Shown here: one piece after another, positions 9,821 to 22,748 of the stretch
Numbering within the stretch: position 1 is the first letter of the stretch
Layout: every line of letters starts with the position of its first letter
Assembly (NCBI RefSeq): GCF_000527175.1
Contig: NZ_AZUR01000001.1
Coordinates: 2,408,913-2,432,912 of the forward strand
Length of the DNA: 24,000 bases
Origin: Pseudogulbenkiania sp. MAI-1
Lineage (GTDB): Bacteria; Pseudomonadota; Gammaproteobacteria; Burkholderiales; Chromobacteriaceae
Direction: 5' to 3'
The notes under the pieces: model-generated
The model's database searches: none
Told to the model about the DNA's origin: nothing
The model's input: the letters and a program-made list of their open reading frames with translations, nothing else
Translations under genes and position numbers: made by a program

Positions 9821-10516
9821 ATGGCAACCTCCCTCACCGAGCCCACTGCTTATTGGAATTCACGTATGCAAATCCCGATCGAGTCCGTTCTTACCCTGCT
9901 GCACGAGACCAGGTTCGGCACGTTGGCCACTCACTCGACTCAGCTACCGGGCTACCCTTACGCCACCGCGGTGCCGTATGTGATGGACGAAAACCATCGA
10001 CCGGTGATCTGTATCAGCGCCCTGGCGGAGCACACCAAGAATGTGCTCGCCGACCCGAGGGTGAGCTTCTCGGTAGTGCAAGCCGGGGCAACGGAGGTTC
10101 AGGCTGCCGCCCGGGTCACCCTCATCGCCGACGCGGAACGGCTCGAGGCTCTGCCAGAATGGCTGGCCCGCTTTCTCCGTTATGAGCCGGGTGTCGAACA
10201 GCTCCTGTCCCTTGACTTCCTGTTCTTCAGATTAATGCCCCAACGCGTCCGCTTCATTGCAGGTATCGGTCGCATGGGCTGGCTGGAGGAGCACGAGTGG
10301 AGCGCACTCTGCCCACTACCGGCGGCCGACGAGGTGAAACTGGTGCAAGTGCTGTCCCCTGCCGTGAGGGCCGGCGTTCGCGTGCTCGGGATCGACTGCT
10401 ACGGGATCGACTATGAATTCAATGGACACCGGCAACGGCAGCGGTTTCCGAATGGCACGTTGCCAGCGGAAACGGTGAGAAAAGCCGCGCGGAGCATGGC
10501 CCCGAATCTCGTGTGA
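9821..10516 (+). CDS. HugZ / pyridoxamine-5'-phosphate-oxidase-like FMN-binding split-barrel protein with a DUF2470-like C-terminal region
   Basis: FGTLATHS...GYPYATAVPYVMDENHRPVICISALAEHTKNVLADPRVSFSV matches the conserved N-terminal pattern of HugZ/PNPOx-related proteins. The start is uncertain (ATG 9821 or ATG 9866); neither has a good SD. Confidence 0.7.
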   Translation: MATSLTEPTAYWNSRMQIPIESVLTLLHETRFGTLATHSTQLPGYPYATAVPYVMDENHRPVICISALAEHTKNVLADPRVSFSVVQAGATEVQAAARVTLIADAERLEALPEWLARFLRYEPGVEQLLSLDFLFFRLMPQRVRFIAGIGRMGWLEEHEWSALCPLPAADEVKLVQVLSPAVRAGVRVLGIDCYGIDYEFNGHRQRQRFPNGTLPAETVRKAARSMAPNLV

Positions 10517-10703
10517 CGTGAGGGGTCTTGCCCGCTCTCCCGAGAGCTGGCCGAGCAGGGTGCGTCCTTCTGAGCTTTGCCTATGCACTGTGCGGACTAC
10601 CCTGCTCTACCCGCATCACAAGACCGGTCATTCCCGCCGCGCCATCACCGGGGAGTGAGACGGTTCTTCCCCGATTTTTGTCTCCCCTCACCGCCCCCGC
10701 CTC

Positions 10704-10731
10704 TTGAAATCGAAGTCTTCTGCGCTAGCCT
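10704..10731 (+). promoter_or_regulatory. Promoter-like motif P1: TTGAAA-N16-TAGCCT, within the shared 10-mer CTTGAAATCG
   Basis: TTGAAA at 10704-10709 and TAGCCT at 10726-10731, with a C-rich tract (CCCCGCC) just upstream. A near-identical arrangement recurs at 12206-12233. Confidence 0.35.
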
Positions 10732-10900
10732 GATGTCGACGGTTGGCCCACGGGTCCACCGCGCCAGCCAGTGACCGGCCAGGAGCCTCGTCCACAGAAA
10801 CGGTGGATAAGTCTGTGCATAGCCCTCTCCTGTCGGTCCCGCTCGCTGGCCACTCCTTGATCGGGCCATACTGCCCATAAAATAGGCGAAGGGGATAATC

Positions 10901-11770
10901 ATGCATCATGACCTGCTCATCCACTGTCTGGTTAATAACGACCAGGACCGTATCGATAACCTGCTGCAGCGCCATCCTGATGTCGCGCAGGCGCTCGACG
11001 ACGTTCTGACCACCGTCGACCTCAGCCCGGTGACGGCACCGGCGCACTGGCTCACCCCCCTCTACGTCCCGGTGGTGGTGCTGTCGCGCCACAGCCTGTC
11101 GCCCGCCCCCTTGCCGGTCGACGCCTTGACGGAGCACCTGGCAGGGCTGACCGGCAGGGCCAGCATCCTCGTGGCGCCCACACTGCTCACGCTCCCCCGC
11201 CTCATCGATTACAGTCCGTGTGAGCATTACGGGCTGGCCGCCCAGTTCGCCTTCAATCAACTCCTGGGGGAAGATGGACCCTACCCCAATGAACTGCGCC
11301 ACTACGTCGGACACGAAGGGTATCTGCGCCAGGCCGAAGGGTTGCTGCTGGCCGGGGTGATGGGCCCGGACCGGGACACGGCCAGCGTCGTCCTGCACCC
11401 GACCGCCGAGGGCCTGCTGGATCTGGCGCGGCTGCTCAGCTTGCACTTCAGCGAGGAAGGCCAACCCAGCCCGCGGGTCTACGTCGGCATCCCGAGCCTG
11501 TATAGTGACTTCCGCCGCCATGCCCTGAACCTGCAGGCGTACACCTCGATCGAGCAGCTAGTGGCTCACCACCCCGATGAGACGATCGACATCCGGCCAC
11601 TGCCGGGCCCGTCCCAAGCCAACCCGATTACCTGCCAGGTCTCGGTCGGGGGACAGCCCACCACGCGCATTACCGTATTGCGGGAGGGCTGGAGCGATTT
11701 CACCCGCTCGCTCAGTCAGTGCCAGCATCGTTATGAGGAGGCGGATATCCAACTGACCGCACCGGTCTGA
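10901..11770 (+). CDS. Hypothetical protein (289 aa)
   Basis: AAGGGGA SD 5 nt upstream of the ATG. Strong GC3 bias in this frame. The overlapping minus ORF 10688..11521 has the R/G/Q-rich composition of an antisense shadow. I recognise no family. Confidence 0.6.
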   Translation: MHHDLLIHCLVNNDQDRIDNLLQRHPDVAQALDDVLTTVDLSPVTAPAHWLTPLYVPVVVLSRHSLSPAPLPVDALTEHLAGLTGRASILVAPTLLTLPRLIDYSPCEHYGLAAQFAFNQLLGEDGPYPNELRHYVGHEGYLRQAEGLLLAGVMGPDRDTASVVLHPTAEGLLDLARLLSLHFSEEGQPSPRVYVGIPSLYSDFRRHALNLQAYTSIEQLVAHHPDETIDIRPLPGPSQANPITCQVSVGGQPTTRITVLREGWSDFTRSLSQCQHRYEEADIQLTAPV

Positions 11771-11906
11771 GGCGGCAGTGAGCCCGGAGTCATCAGGTGG
11801 GCCGGCCCGGCCGGCCTCCCGATGGCAGAGCCCGCCACCACGGCTTGTTTCCAGGCCTGGCGGGCGGGCGATTACCGTCGGGCGTGTCCACCAGGAGAGT
11901 CGAGTG

Positions 11907-12089
11907 ATGTCCAGAATGACCGCGAAAACCTCGAAAGCCTCGAAAGCCTCGTCACGCGCTCCCACCCGGCGGCGGTTCCTCGGGGAGTTCATCGGTGCCG
12001 TGCGGGAAGGGCCGAGACTTTACTTCGCCCCGCTCATTGGGGCGATCCGGGCCATCCGGCGCGAATGGCTCAACACTGGCCGGGAATAA
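11907..12089 (+). CDS. Small basic hypothetical protein (60 aa)
   Basis: AGGAGA at 11893-11898 precedes GTG 11904 / ATG 11907. Product is MSRMTAKTSKASKASSRAPTRRRFLGEFIGAVREGPRLYFAPLIGAIRAIRREWLNTGRE, a basic N-terminus followed by an amphipathic C-terminus. Contains the 9-bp tandem repeat cctcgaaag x2.5 at 11929-11951. Confidence 0.3.
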   Translation: MSRMTAKTSKASKASSRAPTRRRFLGEFIGAVREGPRLYFAPLIGAIRAIRREWLNTGRE

Positions 12090-12205
12090 GGGCTCCTTCT
12101 CCCCGCCCTGCTCCCGGCGGCCCGACACTGTTGCTGCTCCCGTCATACCCTTCCGCCGGGCGCCGGCCAGAGCTCGCTTTCCCCGCCGCTTGCCCTCTCC
12201 AGCAC

Positions 12206-12233
12206 TTGAAATCGCCGCGTCATCCCGTAGGCT
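12206..12233 (+). promoter_or_regulatory. Promoter-like motif P2: TTGAAA-N16-TAGGCT (twin of P1)
   Basis: TTGAAA at 12206-12211 and TAGGCT at 12228-12233. It carries the same 10-mer CTTGAAATCG (12205-12214) and a C-rich upstream tract, and lies about 30 nt upstream of the ATG at 12265. Confidence 0.35.
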
Positions 12234-12264
12234 TGATTGACCTACTTCACTGGCGAGGTTGCTC

Positions 12265-13026
12265 ATGAACTATCTCCATGTCCACGCGGTACTGCAGGAA
12301 CCGACCCAATGCCGGGTAGGCTATTCCTGTCGTCGGGACGGTTTGAGCGGGGTGATCGAGGTGACCTGGCCGCGCGCGGCGAGTGACGGCACGCTGGTGG
12401 CCGAACTGGTGGCGTTGCGTTACCTGTTGTCGGTCGCCGGCGTGGCGGGCCGTGAGCGCCAGGGCGGGGCCGGGCTGCAGCTGACGGTCAGCCATGGCGC
12501 GATTCGCAAGCTGCAGCGCCAGTCCTCGGCCAAGCAGATGCTGGCGCACTACGCCCAATTCCTGCAGACGCGTTATCGGGATGCCGGGATCGGGGTAGCA
12601 AAGCAGCCCTCCTGGGCCACGGAGATGGCACGACTGGAGCCGTCCCTCATCCTGCCGGCCCAGCCGGTGCTGGAGACGCTGGCAACCCCACTCGGGGCTG
12701 TGGCCCTGACACAGCATGCCCTGGAGCGTTTCATTGAGCGCGGCACTCGCCCCGGCTGCAACGCCAGCCAGGCCTATATCTCGTTGCAGCGGCTGGCGGC
12801 CTCCGCCGAGTGTCGGGAAGTGGTGCCGGTGCCGAGCCAGCAGCGGGCTTGGGAGGCCCGGCATGGCCAGCGCGCCCGCTTCCTGCTGCACGATTCCACC
12901 CGGCTGTGCCTGGTGATCGGTTCCGGCTACCAGCACCAGCCGACGCTGCTGAGTTGTTACCGGCTGGACGAGGGTGACCGACTGGCGCCGGTCAAGGTCT
13001 ACCGTGGCGCCTATGCCCCGATCTGA
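12265..13026 (+). CDS. Hypothetical protein (253 aa), two-region architecture
   Basis: GAGG SD 6 nt before ATG 12265; the track TTG at 12259 is less likely. GC3-rich frame. The C-terminal region has LTQHALERFIER ... TLLSCY, reminiscent of small TxHAxxRxxxR toxin-like domains (DUF4258-like). The assignment is tentative. Confidence 0.6.
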   Translation: MNYLHVHAVLQEPTQCRVGYSCRRDGLSGVIEVTWPRAASDGTLVAELVALRYLLSVAGVAGRERQGGAGLQLTVSHGAIRKLQRQSSAKQMLAHYAQFLQTRYRDAGIGVAKQPSWATEMARLEPSLILPAQPVLETLATPLGAVALTQHALERFIERGTRPGCNASQAYISLQRLAASAECREVVPVPSQQRAWEARHGQRARFLLHDSTRLCLVIGSGYQHQPTLLSCYRLDEGDRLAPVKVYRGAYAPI

Positions 13027-13122
13027 TCGAACGAAACCCGGCCAGCCCCGCCCTGCGTTGGCTTGGGGCGGTGTGCCGGCCGGGCACGGTGATGGGTCAG
13101 GTGGGTCGGCAAGCCGTATGGC

Positions 13123-13353
13123 TCAGTGGGCTTCACCGCTGGCCGCCGGCGCCAGCACCGGTTCGGCGCGGTAAATCACGCCCGGATTCAGCAGGCATTC
13201 GTCTTGCCGCATCACCAGCCAGCCGCAGTCGGGGTAGCCCGGCGCGGTGCGATGATAGTGATAGCGCAGTCCGAATTGATCCTCGATCCAGCCATAAATC
13301 GGACCGTCCTGGAATTGGCCGATCACCGGCCCGAGGTGTTCGATCAGCAGCAT
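13123..13353 (-). CDS. Small hypothetical protein (76 aa)
   Basis: A strong SD (AAGGAG, 7 nt spacer) precedes the ATG at 13353 (MLLIEHLGPVIGQFQDGPIYGWIEDQF...). The 88 extra codons of the track ORF upstream of it (to 13617) look non-coding. Confidence 0.5.
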   Translation of the reverse strand: MLLIEHLGPVIGQFQDGPIYGWIEDQFGLRYHYHRTAPGYPDCGWLVMRQDECLLNPGVIYRAEPVLAPAASGEAH

Positions 13354-13364
13354 GGTCTTGCTCC

Positions 13365-13541
13365 TTATATTAAGGTGTGTGATGGGGCCCATCTCGGGCC
13401 GGTGTTCAGACCTGGAGCGTGGCACGGCCGCGCTCGATGCAAGGAGGCACAAATCTCCTCGCGCGGGTAGTTCAACAGCAACGGCATGACGACCGGGCTG
13501 GCGATAGCCAGCAGGGTGATCAACGCCAACAGCTGGGTCAT
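13365..13541 (-). CDS. Possible small membrane peptide (58 aa) upstream of the 76-aa gene
   Basis: MTQLLALITLLAIASPVVMPLLLNYPREE... has an N-terminal hydrophobic helix. Its stop lies 11 nt before the next ATG with that gene's SD in between, which is an operon-like layout. Its own SD is weak. Confidence 0.25.
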   Translation of the reverse strand: MTQLLALITLLAIASPVVMPLLLNYPREEICASLHRARPCHAPGLNTGPRWAPSHTLI

Positions 13542-13817
13542 ACTGTCCCACTTGTCCCTGGCAGGCTTCCTGTCGATCAACACGAAACCAGCATGTCATA
13601 AAAAAGTCGGGTTTCAAGGGGGGGCGGCAGGGTGACGCCAGGCGTTGATCGCAGGCAGTCCCCGGCCACGGAGAGGTGCCGTGCTCGGTGGTCCCGGGCG
13701 TGTCGGCGGGACGTCTCCTCGAGGCCAGTGTCGTCGCACATGGCCAGCAGGTAAGCAGTCAGCCCTCAAGACGGCAGGGGCACGGGCGCTCAGAAAGGCC
13801 GGTCAGCACTTTGGCCG

Positions 13818-13922
13818 AAGATCGGTACAAACACCGACAGTAAGATCGGCAAAACTATCTGCCCATTCCTAGATAAGCCACTGAGCTGGTTGCCTTATAA
13901 TCGGACGAAAGATCGGCAAAAA
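13818..13922 (+). promoter_or_regulatory. Three direct repeats AAGATCGGyA(c)AAA plus a TATAAT box upstream of fic
   Basis: Repeat copies at 13818-13831, 13842-13854 and 13909-13922. A perfect TATAAT lies at 13896-13901, 33 nt before the fic ATG. This looks like a candidate operator array. Confidence 0.35.
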
Positions 13923-13933
13923 CAGGCACCACA

Positions 13934-15235
13934 ATGGTTGATGTTTACGACGATCCCGTTCAGATGGAGCCGCTCGTCATCGACGACTCCCGCCCCGTCT
14001 TCAAAGACCTGCATGGGCTCGCTCACGAGCTGTCAGAGGTGTCCGCGTGCCTCGACGCGGCGGTCATTCCTTCGACGGCAAAAAGCCTCTCTGAACTCGT
14101 CGAGGGCCTGAACTGCTACTACAGCAACCTCATTGAAGGCCACATAACGCTCCCCATCGACATCGACCAGGCATTGCACGAGGTCACGGAGAAGGCGGAC
14201 AGGAAGAATTTGCAGAGCCTTGCGCTGGCTCACATCGAAGCGGATCGCTGGGGCAAACAGCAGTCTCTCGGCAAAGAAACACTCAAGTCATTTCTACTCA
14301 ACGTCCATCGAACATTTTGCCAGCACCTCCCCGCAGAGCTCTTGCAGCTCGACGACGGCGCCATCATGACGCCTGGCGAGTTCCGCACTTGGGAGGTGCA
14401 GGTGGGACGGCACCTCGCGCCCAAAGCCGAGACCCTTGGAAGCTTCATGGACCGGTATCAACAGGTCTATGGGCAACGACTTGATTGGGCCAAGAAGGGG
14501 GGTCTACCAAAGCTCACCAGCATGGTATCGACGTTCGCCGCACACCACCGGCTAGCCTGGATTCACCCTTTCCTGGATGGGAATGGCCGCGTCGCACGGA
14601 GCACCCTGGACGCGATGCTCCGGGCGTGCGGAGTCAGTGGCGCCAGTTTGTGGTCGATGTCCCGCGGGCTGGCGAAGACCTCGGACCAGTACAAGGCTTA
14701 CCTGGCCGGTGCCGACGAAGCTCGACATGGCGCTCTGGATGGGCGAGGCAATCTGACCGAAAAGGGGCTGGCCGAGTTCTTCCGATACGGCATGCAAACC
14801 GCGATTGACCAGGCGAACTACATGGCGTCGATGTTCTCCCTGGAAAACTTCCAGGCTCGCGCATCGGGATACTTTCGTAAGGTCCGGTACACCGACATGA
14901 AGCCAGAAGCCGCCCACTTGTATCTGCATGCGTTCGTGATGGGCGAGTTTGAGCGTGGTGAAGCCAGCCGGATTACCGGCCTAGCCGAAAGAACAGCACG
15001 ATCCGTACTGAGCGACCTCATCGGCGAGGGTTTCCTGGTGTCTGACTCGCCCAAAGGCAAGGTTCGGGTTGGATTTCCGATCCATGCCCTCGGCTCGCTG
15101 CTCCCGAACCTCTACCCCGCCGGCGATGTCGACATCACACCGGAACAGCTTGCCGAGATTCGTCACCGCAAGAAAATCGCAACGAGCAGACCGGCATCGT
15201 TTCGGCAACACATCGACAACAAGACCGAGTCCTGA
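13934..15235 (+). CDS. Fic family protein (class II, with intramolecular inhibitory helix), C-terminal wHTH-like region
   Basis: Canonical Fic active-site motif HPFLDGNGRVAR (HxFx[D/E]GNGRxxR). The N-terminal inhibitory motif [S/T]xxxE[G/N] is present as SNLIEG in YYSNLIEGHITL. Confidence 0.9.
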   Translation: MVDVYDDPVQMEPLVIDDSRPVFKDLHGLAHELSEVSACLDAAVIPSTAKSLSELVEGLNCYYSNLIEGHITLPIDIDQALHEVTEKADRKNLQSLALAHIEADRWGKQQSLGKETLKSFLLNVHRTFCQHLPAELLQLDDGAIMTPGEFRTWEVQVGRHLAPKAETLGSFMDRYQQVYGQRLDWAKKGGLPKLTSMVSTFAAHHRLAWIHPFLDGNGRVARSTLDAMLRACGVSGASLWSMSRGLAKTSDQYKAYLAGADEARHGALDGRGNLTEKGLAEFFRYGMQTAIDQANYMASMFSLENFQARASGYFRKVRYTDMKPEAAHLYLHAFVMGEFERGEASRITGLAERTARSVLSDLIGEGFLVSDSPKGKVRVGFPIHALGSLLPNLYPAGDVDITPEQLAEIRHRKKIATSRPASFRQHIDNKTES

Positions 15236-16253
15236 TCACCCCGGAAACCTGGTCACTTTTGCACGCTGTTCTACATACCGGGCGTCGGTGCGAACCATAA
15301 TACGCGGTTGTGATGTAAATTCTAGAGTGGCCGAGTTCTTCTGAGACCTTGTATCTAACCCTTTTCTCTAAGTCCGCAGGTATCTCATCTTTGACCCCAC
15401 CCCGCACTGGGGTTTTGTATCCCCCGCTAAGTTCTTCGAACCTGTTATTAGCATATTCATGGCGTAGACCATGAGGAGTTACTCCCAATTCCGCCTTGGT
15501 GACCCCATGCTTTTCCAGAACATGACGGAAGTGACGGAGGTTTTGCTTCAAGGTTTTGTTTCGGATACCGATGTGGTTGTCACCATTCCCAGCCAGTTCC
15601 TTCGCCTTTTTCAAAACCGCACGCTGGCTTTCCGTCTCCACGGGGACAAACCTGATACGACCTCCTTTAGTCCCCCGTTTCAGCATCAAGCTTTTGCCGT
15701 CGATACTGATAGAGTCGTTGGGCTTGAACATGGCAGCCTCTTTAACCCTAAGTCCAAATTCGCGAAGCAATTCGAGTTGAATCGCGACTCGTTTATCCTC
15801 TTTCTCGATTCTCTGCAACAGTTCCTCAGGATCAATACTGCTCGCTGACCAACTTTTGTCTGTTTCAGCCCGATAAACCCGCTTAATCGATTCCGGATTG
15901 CTCACAAGGTCACATAAGGGAGGAATTGTTCCAGGTTTATCGACCCAAACAAGAAACGTACCAAGAACTGAGTGCCGAGTTTGTAGGGTGGATGGACTAA
16001 GACCCTGATTTTCCCAGTGTTTAAAGAGAGCCTCTATGTGCCTTTGTCGTAAATTGCGAACACTTTGTAGCTTGTAGCCAAGTTCTCTCAGCTGACGGAA
16101 CGACTGGAACAGGATATCTGCCCTCTTCTTGATCGTTGCCATACTGACAACCTTATCTTTTCTGGCATGGCCATGGGCATTGGCGTGTATGAGTTGATTC
16201 AACTCCTTCTGCCAATCGCCCGGCCTTATATCATATGTGTGAGTGCTGCTCAT
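15135..16253 (-). CDS. Tyrosine recombinase / integrase with an abnormal ~51-aa C-terminal read-through tail
   Basis: Catalytic set present: R (FGLRVKEA), K (TKGGRIR), HxxR (HGLRHEY), H (LGHSRIY) and Y (TTAYYG). The N-terminal region resembles the phage-integrase N-terminal domain family. ATG 16253 is preferred over TTG 16265. After YYGS (15291-15302) the frame continues through the antisense of the fic 3' end to 15135. Confidence 0.85.
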   Translation of the reverse strand: MSSTHTYDIRPGDWQKELNQLIHANAHGHARKDKVVSMATIKKRADILFQSFRQLRELGYKLQSVRNLRQRHIEALFKHWENQGLSPSTLQTRHSVLGTFLVWVDKPGTIPPLCDLVSNPESIKRVYRAETDKSWSASSIDPEELLQRIEKEDKRVAIQLELLREFGLRVKEAAMFKPNDSISIDGKSLMLKRGTKGGRIRFVPVETESQRAVLKKAKELAGNGDNHIGIRNKTLKQNLRHFRHVLEKHGVTKAELGVTPHGLRHEYANNRFEELSGGYKTPVRGGVKDEIPADLEKRVRYKVSEELGHSRIYITTAYYGSHRRPVCRTACKSDQVSGVIRTRSCCRCVAETMPVCSLRFSCGDESRQAVPV

Positions 16254-16440
16254 TTTGTCACCCAACCCATGTCAGTTAATTTCATATTTTTATTCATCAC
16301 CTGCTGCGGCCAGCAGGGCCCTGCGTCCTTAAAAAAATTCGTCCGGCTTTCCAGGCCCCCTCAATTTGAGGGCCAGCTTGCGCTGGGGCAGATACCCCAT
16401 TTATCGACCGGCATCAAGTCTCGACCTCGCCAATAATGGC
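15291..16440. mobile_element. AT-richer integrase-bearing segment (boundaries approximate)
   Basis: Base composition drops visibly relative to fic on the left and the ABC-3C genes on the right. It carries only the recombinase, and both neighbouring genes show junction damage (read-through tail on the left, truncated ATPase on the right). Confidence 0.35.
16358..16372. repeat. 15-bp palindrome CCCTCAA-T-TTGAGGG upstream of the integrase
   Basis: Perfect 7-bp arms around one central base, about 105 nt upstream of the integrase ATG. A second hairpin CCTGCTG-cggc-CAGCAGG lies at 16300-16317. Either could be a recombinase or regulator binding site. Confidence 0.4.
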
Positions 16441-16539
16441 TGAGGTCACTTCTGTGGTTCACGCACGTTCCACCCTGGGGTGGTTACGGTTTCACTCCTG
16501 TTGACCCTTGTGGGGGACACACACGGCTGACCGCTTAAT

Positions 16540-16555
16540 TCACGCGGTCGTTAAT
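16540..16555. repeat. 16-bp exact direct repeat, copy 1 (TCACGCGGTCGTTAAT)
   Basis: Identical to 16967-16982. Lies about 107 nt beyond the premature stop of the ATPase fragment. Confidence 0.6.
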
Positions 16556-16662
16556 GCCTCGGAGGTGGACATGGTCCATTGCCGGTGCGCTTAGTCGATG
16601 GAGTTCATCGGTAGTTCATGGTGGTTCGTCGAGAGTTTCGACTTGGCAGGCGATTCTTCGTC

Positions 16663-16938
16663 TCACAAAGGAGCACGGCGGCCTGGTACCAGCGTGTTGG
16701 CGACGAACACCTGCTCGTGTGGAAACTGGAACGTGACCCCGAACCAGGATACCTTCTCGCGGATGAAGCCCTCCGCAATTTTGCACTCATCCTCTCCCAT
16801 GCAGTACTCGACGATGTCCGAGAGGGACGACTTACCCGTTGAGGCTAGGCCGGTGATGATGTTCAGCCCATCGGGATTCAGGGTGAGGTCGCGCCTACGG
16901 CCGTCGTGGCTGTAGATATGAATAGAAGCAATCTTCAT
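16663..16938 (-). pseudogene. Truncated N-terminal fragment of a DUF3732-like ABC-3C ABC ATPase
   Basis: MKIASIHIYSHDGRRRDLTLNPDGLNIITGLASTGKSSLSDIVEYCMGE...WFGVTFQF matches the N-terminal strand-Walker A region (GxxxxGKS) of SMC/ABC-type ATPases of the three-component family. The frame ends after 91 codons. No Q-loop, signature or Walker B follows in any frame before the integrase segment. Confidence 0.6.
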
Positions 16939-17423
16939 GGGCGGATGGACAAACTGGTGTAGACCGTCACGCGGTCGTTAATCTGGGCGAAATCGCGGCC
17001 GAGGACGACTGCAGCGGCGCGGCATCTTTCGGCGTCTTCGGTGTTCAGCGGCTGGGGTGACACGCGCCTAGGTATGAGGCTAATGCATCCGCCATCATTC
17101 ACTCTGATACAGCCCTTGCTTGCTAGCAGTGCGAAGGCCTCTGTGGCGTACTGGACAAGCGCCCGAGCCCGTTCAGCGAAGTCGACCAGCAAGTCCGGGC
17201 GCAGTGCGAAGACCCGCAGCACCGACCGCCGCTTGTTCTCCAGAATCTCCTCACGTGAGGCCTGGTGTAGGCACATCGGCAGCACAAGCAGCGTCAAGGA
17301 GTACGGCATTGGCTTCCTGGCAATACGCTCGTACTCACGGATGGCCGCGGCCAAGACCACCGCGCAAAACGCAGGGTTGAAGAGGTTCCGCTCTTCAAAC
17401 GGGCGAGATGACCAGTTCCTCAT
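16935..17423 (-). CDS. ABC-three-component (ABC-3C) system middle component
   Basis: 162 aa. The N-terminus MRNWSSRPFEERNLFNPAFCAVVLAAAI...MPYSLTLLVLPMCLHQASRE follows the W..RP.E..NL.NPAF...(L/V)LP..LH pattern I recall for proteins annotated as three-component ABC system middle component. ATGA overlaps at both ends (17420-17423 and 16935-16938). Confidence 0.65.
   Translation of the reverse strand: MRNWSSRPFEERNLFNPAFCAVVLAAAIREYERIARKPMPYSLTLLVLPMCLHQASREEILENKRRSVLRVFALRPDLLVDFAERARALVQYATEAFALLASKGCIRVNDGGCISLIPRRVSPQPLNTEDAERCRAAAVVLGRDFAQINDRVTVYTSLSIRP
16967..16982. repeat. 16-bp exact direct repeat, copy 2 (TCACGCGGTCGTTAAT)
   Basis: Identical to 16540-16555. Lies inside the 3' end of the middle-component gene (codons INDRVT), 29 nt upstream of the ATPase-fragment ATG. 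Confidence 0.6.
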
Positions 17424-18613
17424 GCTGTCACCTTCGACGTGGCAGCCTTCAGGCGCTCAAGAAACTGCGGATGCCAGTGCACGCGCGGCATCGGCTTCTC
17501 GTCAGCGAGGATGTGGAAGCTGCCGCGGCGAACGAAGTCCTCCGTGACGTCCTTGCGGATTTGCAGGCCCTTGGACTGGTTCTCTGCCCAGTCATACAGC
17601 TGGCGGCCCGCAGCTTGGTACTCGGCCTCGTTCTGTGGCGCCTTCACCATGGCCCAGCCTTTGGCGCGCTTCCATTCTTCGACCAGGCGCAGCTCGAACT
17701 TGCGAATCTCGTCGCCGACAAGGGCGTTGACACGCGACCAATGTGCGCGTTGGGAGAACGCGCGGTAGAAGTCCAAGATTGCCATCTCCAAGCTGTCGCT
17801 GGACATGGCAATCGCCCGCAGCTGCTCGACGAACTGCCGGGTGTCTTTCATCGCGTCAATTCCCTCGTCAGGGTAGGCGTCGTCGAAGGTTATTGGCAGG
17901 CGCTCGTCGTAATACTCGCTGTTGACCTGCGCAAACTTCGCCCAGACCTCGGCGCCGGTAATGGGCTCGCGCTCGCCCTGGATGAGCTCTATAGCTTCCC
18001 TGAGCCACCACCCTTCCATGCGTTCACGGACATCAGTGCGGAACTTCGCAGCCACCGACCGCAGAAGCGGGGCGAAGGCGGCATCCAGCTCCATGATGCG
18101 CAGCGAACTATCGGCAATCACGATGCGGGCCAAGAAGTCGTCCTGCTGGGTCGCAGTCAACGAGCTGAACTTGTTTTCAATCTGCGCACTCAGCTGCGTC
18201 TTCGAGCCCTTGAGCTCGGTGACGAGCTGCTTTGCGAAGTCAGCTGGCTTGGCATCAGCACCGTAGAGGAAATACCGAAGCAGCGTGGTGGGACCGACGC
18301 GCGCCGTCGTTGCCATGCAATATGAGTGATCGCAGGCAAGGTTGCCATCGCGGATGTACCGGTCGAGCCAGATGCGGACCGACTTCCAAAAGTCGGTCGA
18401 CAGCGTGGCGACGGTCTCGCCGACCTTCTTGTGCTTCAGCGATATCAGCGTCTTTTTGCCGTCGACGTCGCGCAGTTCAACGTCGTCGTCGGCCTCTATG
18501 AGCAGTGCTTGGCTCTCGTCCTGCTTCATCAGGTGCGCCAGCGCGAAGCGAATCTGGTAGACGTAGCCGAGCCCCTGCTCCCCGGCGGCGTACTTGTCTG
18601 TTTGAGTTGCCAC
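17420..18613 (-). CDS. ABC-3C effector component: N-terminal PD-(D/E)xK dsDNA-nuclease-like (DUF4297/Cap4-type) domain plus an ABC-3C C-terminal domain
   Basis: The N-terminal region GLGYVYQIRFALAHL...LLIEADDDVELRD...LISLKHKK has the GF/YxYQ ... D-x-E ... K layout of Cap4-type nuclease domains. GGGAGGA SD lies 3-4 nt before GTG 18613, and the track start at 18706 is an alternative. Translationally coupled to the middle component. Confidence 0.7.
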   Translation of the reverse strand: MATQTDKYAAGEQGLGYVYQIRFALAHLMKQDESQALLIEADDDVELRDVDGKKTLISLKHKKVGETVATLSTDFWKSVRIWLDRYIRDGNLACDHSYCMATTARVGPTTLLRYFLYGADAKPADFAKQLVTELKGSKTQLSAQIENKFSSLTATQQDDFLARIVIADSSLRIMELDAAFAPLLRSVAAKFRTDVRERMEGWWLREAIELIQGEREPITGAEVWAKFAQVNSEYYDERLPITFDDAYPDEGIDAMKDTRQFVEQLRAIAMSSDSLEMAILDFYRAFSQRAHWSRVNALVGDEIRKFELRLVEEWKRAKGWAMVKAPQNEAEYQAAGRQLYDWAENQSKGLQIRKDVTEDFVRRGSFHILADEKPMPRVHWHPQFLERLKAATSKVTA

Positions 18614-18876
18614 TTGTCCTCCCTTGCTTACCCGCAGCCAATCACGGGCGCCTGATACCCATGTACGAAGCATTGCTGATACAGGTGACCAGAAGACTCC
18701 AGGCAATATCTACGAGAATTTATGGCATCTATACGTGGCGCAGCAATGACGTAGGGATTGTGCCAGCCACACTCTCGTTTGTCATCCTGTGAGTATCACT
18801 TGCCTACGGCTGCTTAGGATGCCAAATCACTCGCTGAAAAATCAGGTAAATTAACCCCGGACTCTAAAGCCCACTG

Positions 18877-19124
18877 CTACTGAGAATGGGGGGACGTCGC
18901 AGTCACCTTATCTTCAACGACCAGATGGGTGAGAAAGCTACTGACCTCCGCAGCCCCATGTCGCAGGGGTACCGATGATGGTGAAAGCGCAAAAAGCGCC
19001 GTACCCAATTGTTGACGTATTGCTGCTCGGTGCGCAGGCTGTAGTGCCTGACTCGCAGCGCCTCGCGCAGCACATGGCACAAGCGTGGCGCGGCAGTCCC
19101 ATTTAACTGTGTACTTTCAGGCAT
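18877..19124 (-). pseudogene. intI: Integron-integrase-like (IntI) N-terminal remnant, frameshifted and truncated
   Basis: From ATG 19124: MPESTQLNGTAAPRLCHVLREALRVRHYSLRTEQQYVNNWVRRFLRFHHHRYPCDMG. A -1/+1 shift then continues in another frame as AAEVSSFLTHLVVEDKVTATSPHSQ*. This parallels the IntI N-terminal SAM-like domain pattern R.RHYS.RTE.AYV.W..RF..FH..RHP..MG..EV..FL..LA....VS.STQNQA. None of the catalytic domain remains. Confidence 0.6.
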
Positions 19125-19269
19125 CAGCAACCCCAAAAGCTTGGGAAACAATGAAAATGCAATTACCATAACCAGTTGTACATACAGAAAAACCAAATAC
19201 CTGTATAGGTGCATATCTCATGTTGGGCGTCAGCAGTAAGCCAATTTACCACAGCAGAAGGTACTTAAA

Positions 19270-19683
19270 ATGTCTAAACAGCTTTCGTTAATAGATTATC
19301 CTAGCAGCGATGAAGGGGAAGTGTACGAGCCAGAAAATTCTGTAATCGCATCAGCTTTCATATCAAATGAAGTAATACACAACCTCGAAAGACTAGGGGT
19401 ATTTGAAAAATTTCGCCTTTATGAAGACTCGAGCTTGAGTGATTTTGTTGAACAAACCCGAATCAAGCAAGATATGATTGACAGTGCTTTAAGGGAGATT
19501 GAATCTGAATTTATTAGATTATTAGATTCAAAAGTGGTTAATGAAATAAAGAAAATTCAATCCAATGAATCTATTGATGCATTGATCTGTGAATTCAACG
19601 TAATAACAAACATATATCATATCTTGAGGCTGAAAAATAATAATTTTTCAAGCATCTCCTCCGCAATTATTAAATTGGGGTGA
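19270..19683 (+). CDS. Hypothetical acidic, predicted-helical protein (137 aa)
   Basis: AT-rich codon usage that is foreign to the rest of the window. GAAGG SD 9 nt upstream. The stop is 3 nt before the start of the next gene. I recognise no family. Confidence 0.6.
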   Translation: MSKQLSLIDYPSSDEGEVYEPENSVIASAFISNEVIHNLERLGVFEKFRLYEDSSLSDFVEQTRIKQDMIDSALREIESEFIRLLDSKVVNEIKKIQSNESIDALICEFNVITNIYHILRLKNNNFSSISSAIIKLG

Positions 19684-19686
19684 GCG

Positions 19687-20235
19687 ATGAGTGAAAATAT
19701 CGGAAAAGATGGAGAAATGCGCTTCGCAATCACGATTGCAGGGGCTTCTATCAGAGAGAATGGCCTCGACTTTACGCGCCACACGGTAACCAACCAGCCG
19801 GACCTTGGTGTCGATTACTCTGCAAAAGGCCCTGCGGAAGTACTGATTTCATTTTGTGAAATTGGCACAGGCACTGAACTTGGGGTCATTAGAGAAGCGT
19901 TTGGGCAGCCTGACCGTAAAATTGAGGCTAGGTTCGATATAAAAACGACTGAAGAAAAGTTAGCAGGAGACACTGTTGAGAAATTTGTTTCAGATGTAAA
20001 AAAACATCCGACCACTGACCTGCATGTTTTAGCTGGGGGTTCCGGTCTAACAAAATCAGCCCAAGCAAAGTTTGAAACGTATAGCGCAGCACTTCAAGAA
20101 GATGGGAAAGCACTCGTTTACATTCCTAATCAAGGGCTGGCAAAACTAGCATCCGAATATAAGCCAGAGATTCTTAGTGCGCTTGGTGGCCCGACAGGAA
20201 CGGACGAAAGCGGCCCTGGAAGCGAAAGCAAGTAA
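19687..20235 (+). CDS. Putative PD-(D/E)xK (Mrr-cat/restriction-endonuclease-like) nuclease (182 aa)
   Basis: Motif order typical of Mrr-like cores: GKDGE(10)MRFA, then QPD(39)LGVD(43)Y, then ARFD(84)IK(86)T, followed by the ...VxxFxxxV...(long-stretch)...GLTKSAQAKFE layout. Motif recognition by eye only. Confidence 0.5.
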   Translation: MSENIGKDGEMRFAITIAGASIRENGLDFTRHTVTNQPDLGVDYSAKGPAEVLISFCEIGTGTELGVIREAFGQPDRKIEARFDIKTTEEKLAGDTVEKFVSDVKKHPTTDLHVLAGGSGLTKSAQAKFETYSAALQEDGKALVYIPNQGLAKLASEYKPEILSALGGPTGTDESGPGSESK

Positions 20236-20260
20236 TTACGATGCACCTAAAAAATCGTTG

Positions 20261-20316
20261 CACCTGACAAGTTTGCCAGGCCCAGCTTTCAGCCGTTCCA
20301 GTCAAACTTGCAGGTG
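20261..20316. repeat. 56-nt imperfect inverted repeat just after the nuclease-like gene
   Basis: CACCTGaCAAGTTTG (20261-20275) pairs with CAAACTTGCAGGTG (20303-20316). That gives 14 paired bases with one extrahelical A (20267) and a 27-nt loop. No U-tract follows. Confidence 0.5.
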
Positions 20317-20445
20317 AGCTTTACGTTGGGCATTTTGAAAATGACTGCGGTCTCGATTTATCGCTTCAAAGATCGGTGGGTTTGAATCGCCCCTGATTTG
20401 CTAGTCGCCTAGGTGGCTGCTAACGTATCGGAAAGCAGCCATTCG

Positions 20446-20772: not shown

Positions 20773-21558
20773 CTACAACTGCACGATCCGTTTGCGGAAC
20801 TCGTCTGGCGTCGCTCCCATCAACCGGTGGAACATCGCGATGAAAGCGGACGACGTGCTGTAGCCCAACTCCAGCGCCACCGTCTGCACGGTCAGCCCAT
20901 CCTCGAGCATCGAAAGCGCCCGCACCAGCCGCAACCGCTGTCGCCACTCCACGAACGACATGCCAAGGTCGCGCTGACAGCGCCGCGACAACGTGCGCTC
21001 GGTACTGTGCACCACACTTGCCCACGCCTCCAGCGGGCGATTGTCGCCCGGCTGCTGGCGCAGTGCCTCTAGCACCTGGCCCAGTGCCCGGTCTTCGGAG
21101 ATCGGCAGATAGGTATCCTGGCGTGGCGCCAGACTCATCTGGTCGACCAGCACCTGCATCAGCCGTTCGTCGTCGTTGCTACGCGGATAGTCTACCTGGC
21201 GCGCCACCAGGTCGGCCAGGATCGCCTTGCTGATGGGGCCGACCGCCAGCGTACACACTTCGGTGGGCAGCCTGCCGCAACGCTCTGACGCAATGTCCAA
21301 CACGCAATAGCAAGCCTCTGACCGCGTACTGGCCCCATGCTCCGTCTGCGGAGGCAGCCACAGACCGTAATGAGGTGGCGTCAGGTACTGGCGGCTTCCC
21401 ACGGTCAGTTCGATCACGCCACTGAACGAGAACACAAATTCTCCCCAGTTGTGGCGCTCCGTCGGGTAGGTCGTCACCTCGTTCAGCCGCATCGTCCGGA
21501 AAACCAGCGAATGCGGCAGGGACGTCCCGAACGGATACGAAATTTGAGCGCCAGGCAT
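20773..21558 (-). CDS. AraC-family transcriptional regulator (N-terminal cupin-like sensor, C-terminal double HTH)
   Basis: C-terminal AraC signature region LEAWASVVHSTERTLSRRCQRDLGMSFVEWRQRLRLVRALSMLEDG.TVQTVALELGYSTSSAFIAMFHRLMGATPDEF. Confidence 0.9.
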   Translation of the reverse strand: MPGAQISYPFGTSLPHSLVFRTMRLNEVTTYPTERHNWGEFVFSFSGVIELTVGSRQYLTPPHYGLWLPPQTEHGASTRSEACYCVLDIASERCGRLPTEVCTLAVGPISKAILADLVARQVDYPRSNDDERLMQVLVDQMSLAPRQDTYLPISEDRALGQVLEALRQQPGDNRPLEAWASVVHSTERTLSRRCQRDLGMSFVEWRQRLRLVRALSMLEDGLTVQTVALELGYSTSSAFIAMFHRLMGATPDEFRKRIVQL

Positions 21559-21716
21559 CTTGTCGGAAACCTCGTATGCGTTGTCTGGTTTTCATTATAT
21601 CCATGTAGACCGCCACCTCCACAATGATTTCCGTGGGTGAAGGCGCTTTGGCTCGAGTCAGGCGAGAACCTTCAGACACTGTTCTTGTTAAGTCATAGCC
21701 ACCATGAGGTACCCAA

Positions 21717-22748
21717 ATGAAGGCTCTCGATACACTTGCTCAACTTCCCAGACTCAATCTGCGAGGATTTACCTCGCCCGTGCAATACCTCGAACGCTTC
21801 AGCGCGGAAATCGGCATCGAGGTATGGTGCAAGCGCGACGATATCGGTACGGTTGGCCTTGCCGGTAACAAGGTGCGCAAGCTCGAAGTCGAACTCGCGT
21901 ACGCCATCGCCCAAGGCGCCAGGCACCTGGTTGCCGAAGGTTCGCGTCTTTCCAACGCGGCGCGCGCAGTTGCAGCGGCGGCGGCGGCCACTGGTCTTCG
22001 CTGCACGCTTGTGCTGTGCCACGACGAACCATGTGAGCCAGTGGGCAATCTGCTTCTGGACGGACTGTTCGGGGCGCATCTGCGATTCGTTGGCAATGCC
22101 AGCTGGGCTGAACTCGCTCAGCATGCCGAGGAGGTGGTGACCGAACTCGAGAATGCGGGGGAGCGTGTCTATCGGCTTCCCATCGGCTGTGCCTCGGAGA
22201 GAAGTTCCTTAGGCTTTGCCCTCGCATACGCTGAGCTTCACGCTCAAATGGCCGCGCAAGGGCGTGAGGTTGGCACCATCGTGCACGCCAGTTCATCGGG
22301 GGGAACCCACTCGGGACTGGTGCTTGGCAATGCGCTTCACGAGTCGCCGAGCACGATCCGAGGCATCGTCGTCGCCGGGGAGGTCTATGACGATGTTCCG
22401 GGTCAATACCTCGCCTTTGCGCAGGGCGGTGCACGTCTGATCGGCGCGGAGGTTGAACTGACGCGCAGCGACATCAATCTCACCGAGGACTATCTCGGGG
22501 ACGGCTACGGGCTGCCCGCTCCCGGGGTGATGGAGGCGATCGATCTTCTTGCCACGACCGAAGGCATACTCGTGGATCCGGTCTACAGCGCCAAGGCTGT
22601 CGCTGCGCTCATCGATCTCGCTGCAAGGGACGAATTGGAAGGCCCTGTTGTCTTCTGGCACACGGGCGGGTATCACTCGCTCTTCGATCCTCATTACTCG
22701 CGGAAAGTCTGGACCGAGATCGAACGGCTTTCTGCCGTGCGGCTGTAG
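21717..22748 (+). CDS. PLP-dependent 1-aminocyclopropane-1-carboxylate deaminase / D-cysteine desulfhydrase family enzyme
   Basis: 343 aa. GNKVRKLE motif with the PLP-binding Lys, SSGGTHSG loop and WHTGG near the C-terminus. GAGG SD 7 nt upstream. Divergent from the AraC gene. Confidence 0.88.
   Translation: MKALDTLAQLPRLNLRGFTSPVQYLERFSAEIGIEVWCKRDDIGTVGLAGNKVRKLEVELAYAIAQGARHLVAEGSRLSNAARAVAAAAAATGLRCTLVLCHDEPCEPVGNLLLDGLFGAHLRFVGNASWAELAQHAEEVVTELENAGERVYRLPIGCASERSSLGFALAYAELHAQMAAQGREVGTIVHASSSGGTHSGLVLGNALHESPSTIRGIVVAGEVYDDVPGQYLAFAQGGARLIGAEVELTRSDINLTEDYLGDGYGLPAPGVMEAIDLLATTEGILVDPVYSAKAVAALIDLAARDELEGPVVFWHTGGYHSLFDPHYSRKVWTEIERLSAVRL

Follow-up and report, generated by a model that had tools for sequence, protein, structure and literature searches.

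Probable remnant of a DdmABC-type Lamassu (ABC-3C) operon, inactivated not long ago, on the chromosome of Pseudogulbenkiania sp. MAI-1

Introduction

Does a defence operon whose sensor gene has been cut short still serve its host, or is it a leftover of a lost system? This question is raised by a locus at positions 16663 to 18706 of a 24,000-nucleotide stretch of the Pseudogulbenkiania sp. MAI-1 chromosome (contig NZ_AZUR01000001.1, positions 2,408,913 to 2,432,912; the whole stretch is referred to below as the window), in which two intact genes, lmuA and lmuC, are followed by the 5' end of a third, lmuB. A first-pass annotation, made from the letters of the DNA, described an ABC-three-component (ABC-3C) conflict operon with a truncated ATPase gene, and offered decaying leftovers or an ATPase-independent role as explanations for the two intact genes. 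The analysis presented here indicates that the locus is very probably what is left of a DdmABC-type Lamassu (ABC-3C) operon whose defence function was lost recently; of the two explanations, decaying leftovers has by far the stronger support.

The terms ABC-3C, Lamassu and DdmABC all denote one superfamily (PMC10586767; bioRxiv 10.1101/2025.03.14.643221). Its universal core is LmuB, which also acts as the Lamassu sensor (PMC10586767). The earlier remark that such systems have little experimental characterisation is outdated, as the subtype with a Cap4 N-terminal domain, CTD7 and MC3 has been studied in Vibrio cholerae and Salmonella by genetics, biochemistry and cryo-electron microscopy (PMC12663957). 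One LmuA monomer is held via CTD7 by two LmuB protomers and LmuC, and freed LmuA is an active tetrameric nuclease (bioRxiv 10.1101/2025.03.14.643221). In the published working of an intact system, LmuB recognizes ends or hairpins in the DNA of replicating phages or plasmids, whereupon LmuA is released, oligomerises via CTD7 into a tetramer and cuts DNA with its Cap4-like nuclease, thereby aborting the infection.

Genome organization of the locus

Three open reading frames (ORFs) were listed on the minus strand at 17420..18706, 16935..17423 and 16663..16938 (91 amino acids), and both gene junctions are 4-base ATGA overlaps (17423-17420 and 16938-16935); coordinates and translational coupling are as first noted. 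Membership of Lamassu / ABC-3C was judged from four features: a full-length LmuB, an LmuA with an ABC-3C C-terminal domain, an LmuC in between, and the operon order. The order found here, lmuA-lmuC-lmuB on one strand with tight coupling, is that of the family.

The start codon of lmuA is most likely the GTG at 18613, located behind the ribosome-binding site AAGGGAGG. With this start the gene (17420..18613, minus strand) encodes a LmuA of 397 amino acids, which is the length of the RefSeq protein WP_024302982.1 and of all orthologues; initiation from the TTG at 18706 is improbable. The upstream segment 18614..18819 (minus strand) travels with the module, as detected by blastn to related loci: it is common to the window and the intact locus L001 (Neisseriaceae bacterium JH1-16) up to 18819, and to the window and other loci up to about 18664. 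Besides the ribosome-binding site, it carries one promoter-like site, ATGACA-17-CACAAT (18785-18757), which does not exceed chance expectation.

Identity of LmuA and LmuC

The C-terminal part of LmuA was identified by the Pfam CTD7 profile (E 3.6e-36; 124.6 bits against a cut-off of 27.6; residues 292-418 of the 428-amino-acid ORF), a domain of oligomerisation and docking, and the protein as a whole by the PADLOC LmuA profile (2.2e-55). The nuclease-like N-domain proposed at first pass is likely on other grounds than the Pfam match. Taken alone, Cap4_nuclease/DUF4297 (PF14130) scored 14.6 bits (E 0.037) and so fell short of its cut-off of 26.2, and NCBIfam DUF4297_antiphage (E 0.052) was likewise below threshold, but residues 11-388 align to the solved LmuA chains 9NXX_A (6.2e-9) and 9HQU_C, and it is because of this full-length alignment that a putative Cap4-like PD-(D/E)xK nuclease domain is assigned. 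A count along the alignment places Lys60 opposite the catalytic Lys57 of 9NXX_A, and mutation of K57 was used to inactivate the Vc-Cap4 LmuA (PMC12663957).

LmuC (16935..17423, minus strand; 162 amino acids), ATGA-coupled to lmuA, is a middle component of the MC3 family, as it matched the complete Pfam MC3 profile (5.6e-44; positions 1-159 of 159), together with PADLOC LmuC (1.5e-8) and the PDB chain 9HQU_D, 'LmuC' (1.1e-4). The RefSeq names agree with these assignments: 'ABC-three component system protein' for LmuA and 'three component ABC system middle component' for LmuC (WP_024302981.1).

The lmuB stub and its breakpoint

The 91-amino-acid product of the third ORF matched the PADLOC LmuB profile PDLC03859 (4.3e-25), its residues 1-80 aligning with profile positions 3-80 of 611; SMC_N and AAA_23 Pfam matches were sub-threshold in the window scan. 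The matches to CTD7, MC3 and the PADLOC LmuA, LmuC and LmuB profiles are far beyond chance; a lack of significant profile matches, which the first-pass annotation had named as grounds for refutation, was not observed. The stub retains the N-terminal strands and the Walker A motif G30-LASTGKS-S38 (GLASTGKSS), and is 94-98% identical at the amino acid level to residues 1-80/81 of close intact orthologues, and 85% identical in the most distant locus, L010. Intact LmuB proteins of related loci measure 651-658 amino acids; in that of L001, which matches 9NY5_D (1.1e-46) and 9HQU_A (2e-40), DUF3732 is situated at residues 475-645. Together with the CTD7, MC3 and PADLOC matches, this intact orthologue bears out the effector, middle component and DUF3732-type ATPase that had been recognized at first pass.

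Related loci (n=16) were obtained from a scan of one genome per species, and the deletion was defined by alignment to the intact orthologous loci, as the first-pass annotation had proposed. Homology detected by blastn ends at window position 16697 in 13 of the 13 loci carrying the lmuB 5' end, i.e. L001-L008, L010 and L012-L014 (67-97% identity) and L021. In an alignment of the window with L001 and L017, a contig of an uncultured Pseudogulbenkiania, the window departs from the lmuB sequence after ...GTCGCCAA. The homologous stub, lmuB' (16697..16938, minus strand; PADLOC and blastn), covers 80 codons and 2 further bases of an SMC/Rad50-like ATPase gene that has 658 codons when complete, and is followed by 11 unrelated codons (NTLVPGRRAPL) and a TGA, a foreign tail (16663..16696, minus strand) that is read through from lmuB' across the recombination junction 16696/16697. 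The truncation and the Walker A motif described at first pass are thus real, but homology ends at codon 80 instead of about codon 90, the last 11 codons being foreign. Of a full-length LmuB, only residues 1-80 with their Walker A are left. The other 578 of 658 codons, about 88% of lmuB, are missing, and with them the coiled coil, signature motif and Walker B as well as the C-terminal head half with its D-loop and DUF3732.

On its left side, the junction has as partner the conserved non-coding region 16266..16649 (minus strand; collinear with L017) upstream of an island integrase gene, and on that side the crossover lies somewhere within 16650-16696. Most simply, an illegitimate recombination or deletion would have fused lmuB just after codon 80 to this integrase-upstream region. 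The foreign tail is absent from the other members of the 90% cluster of the 91-amino-acid product, nine proteins that all go on with the canonical KPNPKPGQV, and the 24-mer spanning the junction had 0 matches in metagenome contigs.

A truncation of this kind could be an artefact of sequencing or assembly, and low-coverage long-read contigs do yield false short LmuB ORFs, as seen in L021 (2.95x). At the MAI-1 break, however, the sequence is swapped wholesale and not frameshifted, the flank is a coherent integrase island, and the record is a single 4.34-Mb contig. There is also no long repeat at the junction that could cause a misjoin; the only repeat nearby is a 16-nt direct pair whose copies lie at distances of 141 bp and 270 bp. 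An artefact is therefore hardly credible.

This pair is the perfect direct repeat ATTAACGACCGCGTGA (minus strand) at 16540-16555 and 16967-16982, for which 0 occurrences are expected in shuffles. One copy is found in the integrase-upstream region and the other at the 3' end of lmuC, so that they are placed asymmetrically about the lmuB' junction. The copy in lmuC is ancestral, and the other is only partly present in L017.

Search for the remainder of lmuB

No remainder of lmuB was found in the window by tblastn with full-length LmuB or by sensitive blastn of the missing DNA, in agreement with the statement at first pass that none precedes the integrase; the sole other match was a generic ABC-signature in livG. 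With residues 81-658 of LmuB as query, no MAI-1 protein appeared among the 120 best homologues, which are close DUF3732 proteins. A gene split between two places, which had been named as a finding that would overturn the idea of a truncated operon, was hence seen neither in the window nor among these homologues.

It is very improbable that lmuB was split by a large insertion or inversion that moved its 3' 88% elsewhere in the chromosome. In favour of such a split, the break adjoins an integrase-bearing island, a kind of element that inserts into genes, and pseudogene fragments would escape the protein databases searched. On the island side, though, the core genes putA and livFGMH are reached by about 8.6 kb without any lmuB remnant, the homologue search with residues 81-658 speaks against it as well, and a displaced 3' fragment, having neither Walker A nor a start codon, would in any case leave the gene without function.

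Likewise, no conserved stand-alone form of about 91 amino acids, another finding named beforehand as incompatible with a truncation, was recovered by exhaustive phmmer search with the 91-amino-acid query: short matches are spread continuously over lengths of 80-340 amino acids without a peak. Short LmuB-like cluster members were considered as independent truncations and rejected, since they are due to contig ends or to the frameshift-ridden contig L021.

State of lmuA and lmuC and predicted function of the locus

Both surviving genes are intact, as was described at first pass, and 97-98% identical to those of an intact system. Compared with 10-12 orthologues, LmuA shows one window-specific change at an otherwise invariant column, the conservative S110T, and LmuC shows none. 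Differences between the window and L001 (97% identical) were polarised with six outgroups, which assigned 11 non-synonymous and 16 synonymous substitutions in lmuA and lmuC to the window branch (ratio of non-synonymous to synonymous rates, dN/dS, about 0.2) and 3 and 7, respectively, to the L001 branch. This absence of decay fits a recent deletion, and the two genes would be intact because the lesion is young.

Loss of LmuB is expected to be decisive for function. Like Rad50/SbcC and SMC ATPases, LmuB is an SMC/Rad50-like ABC ATPase with Walker A in the N-terminal head half; in contrast to them, the stub has no coiled coil and no C-terminal head half, so that no ABC ATPase fold can form. The 91-amino-acid product would thus be unable to form an ATPase head, to dimerise, to bind DNA or to dock LmuA and LmuC. 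With LmuB gone, the system lacks its sensor and any regulated release of LmuA, and the locus should consequently be defence-dead. This loss of defence is predicted from published data on LmuB mutants (PMC12663957; PMC13171446): defence is lost when Walker A of LmuB is mutated, and no nuclease activity was detectable in solution for LmuA by itself (PMC12663957); a frameshift in ddmC 'would probably render the entire operon non-functional' (PMC13171446).

The closest studied systems are Lamassu type II / DdmABC of V. cholerae VSP-II and LmuACB of Salmonella enterica, with which the window shares gene order, CTD7 and MC3, matches to the solved chains (9NXX and 9HQU for LmuA and LmuC; 9NY5_D and 9HQU_A for the intact orthologous LmuB) and the catalytic lysine. 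LmuA and LmuC of the window have low sequence identity to the solved proteins (E 1e-9 to 1e-4), and, decisively, the window keeps 80 of 658 LmuB codons and the defining ATPase is missing. A parallel for the decay is found in ddmABC of the V. cholerae 7PET lineage BD2, where a frameshift in ddmC was followed by an insertion sequence (IS) in ddmB and then by deletion of ddmAB, interpreted as loss of a defence no longer worth its cost (PMC13171446). There, too, the first hit fell in the lmuB/ddmC gene with lmuA and lmuC still present. The two cases differ in that the BD2 series began with a frameshift, whereas in MAI-1 88% of lmuB was lost at one junction and none of the subsequent steps has followed.

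Several points weigh against reading the locus as an inactivated remnant. Neither lmuA nor lmuC shows any decay, their coupling and leader are kept, and ongoing selection for an LmuB-independent role is possible; the substitution counts are too few to separate recent loss from continuing constraint. The absence of the lmuB remainder holds only for the window and for annotated proteins of the 4.34-Mb genome. In V. cholerae, frameshift and nonsense mutants of ddmC still restricted phage VIB04 (Robins et al., PMC11707656, Table 1), and plasmid-borne Salmonella LmuA was toxic on its own (bioRxiv 10.1101/2025.03.14.643221). Under the sequestration model, moreover, loss of LmuB should free LmuA, so that a silent remnant needs low expression or an inactive free LmuA. 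Chromosomally expressed free DdmA, on the other hand, had limited toxicity (bioRxiv 10.1101/2025.03.14.643221), and ddmC frameshift and nonsense suppressors of V. cholerae are viable (PMC11707656); tolerance of an intact lmuA in MAI-1 would agree with both.

LmuA and LmuC might instead keep a role that does not depend on LmuB, be it a low-level nuclease defence that is constitutively unlocked, a toxin-like module, or cooperation with another SMC-like ATPase in trans. Their undamaged state, the conserved catalytic lysine and the low dN/dS are compatible with such a role, as are the restriction of VIB04 by ddmC mutants and the finding that freed LmuA is the active species (bioRxiv 10.1101/2025.03.14.643221). 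However, all intact relatives fetched have a full-length lmuB directly downstream, the description of LmuB as universal Lamassu core (PMC10586767) and the inactivity of LmuA alone in solution (PMC12663957) do not favour it, and no second close LmuB of MAI-1 was among the 120 best homologues of residues 81-658. The junction is unique to the MAI-1 genome as judged from metagenome contigs and the 90% cluster, and a divergence of 2-3% gives no power to show selection after the deletion. A retained role is on this evidence distinctly unlikely, and we infer that the locus lost its defence function through a recent deletion.

Related loci and mobility of the module

The intact module is found in Betaproteobacteria, i.e. 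L001, Hydrogenophaga, Caldimonas, Thauera and the Paraburkholderia plasmid pTA2.1, with 76-97% DNA identity to the window over lmuA, lmuC and lmuB codons 1-80; L010, the most distant intact locus, has 67%. These relatives differ from the window in their full LmuB of 651-658 amino acids and in their unrelated genomic contexts. The lmuA-lmuC-lmuB module is spread over Neisseriales, Burkholderiales, a Thauera metagenome-assembled genome and a Paraburkholderia plasmid. Its edges are tight and common to the loci: the module begins about 50 bp ahead of lmuA and ends with the stop codon of lmuB (L001 7951-11652, with equivalents in L002-L014).

Further decayed copies were also observed. In L009 a recombinase fragment adjoins an lmuA that breaks off at residue 317, and in L016 a 320-bp lmuA/lmuC scrap is left between a DnaB-like gene and AbiEii. 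About 1.65 kb of extra DNA follows lmuB in L005 (11652-13345), with equivalents in L006 and L014, and encodes a TauD-like ORF of 224 amino acids and an ORF of 337 amino acids without Pfam match. A segment of about 125 bp comes after this extra DNA in the three loci and directly follows lmuB in L001 (11651-11793), including the last ~40 bp of the extra gene, for which reason L001 looks like a deletion derivative of a locus with extra genes after lmuB. LmuA relatives were absent from viral contigs, and neither close nor distant DNA matches to the region were obtained in collections of plasmids and phages.

Flanking regions

The Lamassu remnant sits between fragments of two other mobile elements, an integrase island on the left and an integron integrase on the right.

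The island integrase (15135..16265, minus strand) is a tyrosine integrase of the Integrase_1 / Phage_int_SAM_2 type according to Pfam, and its protein is 100% identical to an NCBI protein of Pseudogulbenkiania sp. MAI-1, as is true of LmuA, LmuC, the 91-amino-acid product, Fic and the two proteins of the integron cassette described below. Window positions 15289-16649 are collinear with L017 at 67% DNA identity, the integrase itself sharing 69% protein identity, and integrase relatives at this level have 327-339 amino acids. The window ORF has lost the homologous stop and runs on for about 37 extra codons, antisense to the 3' end of fic, giving a convergent overlap of 101 bp. The non-coding region upstream of the integrase (16266-16649, about 390 bp) is about 67% identical to L017 2354-2741 and includes strongly conserved blocks such as GAAACCGTAACC and GGAACGTGCGTGAA; it could be a regulatory region or an attachment region of the element. 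Rfam gave no match in the window, this region included, and a degenerate form of the integrase-upstream motif had no match in metagenome contigs. A tRNA scan of the window found none, and hence no tRNA attachment site, and direct repeats marking the attachment sites of the island were not found.

Beyond the integrase, the fic segment at 13905-15233 (or to 15235) shares 92% identity with a fic gene of Pseudogulbenkiania subflava that is flanked by IS elements, and represents an insertion relative to L017, with which collinearity resumes at 10695-11719 and 13129-13353. The stretch 10500-13650 has a GC content of 65-67% and long overlapping ORFs on both strands without Pfam match; within it, protein relatives were present only for 10901-11770 (plus strand, 67%) and 13129-13353 (49%), in both cases in the L017 island.

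To the right of the remnant, a decayed chromosomal integron occupies 18877-20331. The N-terminal remnant of its integrase gene intI (18877..19214, minus strand), frameshifted and truncated, comprises about 95 codons and was recognized by Pfam Phage_int_SAM_4 (1.7e-7); a spliced translation of 81 amino acids shares 52% identity with one annotated integron integrase and 56% with class-1 intI regions. GTTGGGC cores are present at 19222-19228 (attI side) and 20325-20331. An attC-like imperfect hairpin (20261-20275 / 20303-20316) has one bulged base and a DNA fold z of -3.15. The single low-GC (41-44%) cassette between the cores carries two ORFs, 19270-19683 (137 amino acids) and 19687-20235 (182 amino acids), for which no Pfam, NCBIfam or PADLOC match was obtained; each is a singleton 90% cluster. 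With intI reduced to a remnant, the element is no intact integron, which would have intI, attI and attC-bounded cassettes. An origin of the Lamassu module as an integron cassette was considered and rejected, as the module lies behind intI and no IntI homologue stands beside it in 16 of 16 loci.

Further to the right, an AraC-family regulator and a PALP-enzyme gene (20773-22748) have their closest relative in Trinickia dinghuensis (94%), in the same divergent pairing, and by this similarity the right flank of the island region may itself have been acquired horizontally. The AraC gene gave no route to an empty site: its closest relatives in Trinickia and Pseudomonas stand in unrelated contexts, and no ancestral site was recovered.

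Implications

The locus belongs to an already known kind of system in an ordinary decayed state, a pseudogenised sensor ATPase in a mosaic island. For annotation, the two intact genes are parts of a disrupted Lamassu of the DdmABC type, and the 91-amino-acid 'hypothetical protein' is an lmuB pseudogene fragment; counts of defence systems in MAI-1 should not score a functional Lamassu. The locus adds a natural example of Lamassu decay starting in lmuB, within a mosaic island that also contains a decayed integron and an integrase/Fic island.

It is also usable as a natural lmuB-null for asking whether free LmuA is toxic or active. That the undamaged, coupled lmuA-lmuC pair is tolerated here, and perhaps kept, is an unlikely but conceivable extension. 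If this were true and the pair expressed, newly made free LmuA would be inert unless it had first passed through the LmuB2-LmuC complex of the sequestration-and-release model or, alternatively, LmuA-LmuC would have a residual LmuB-independent activity against some phages, as hinted by the restriction of VIB04 (PMC11707656).

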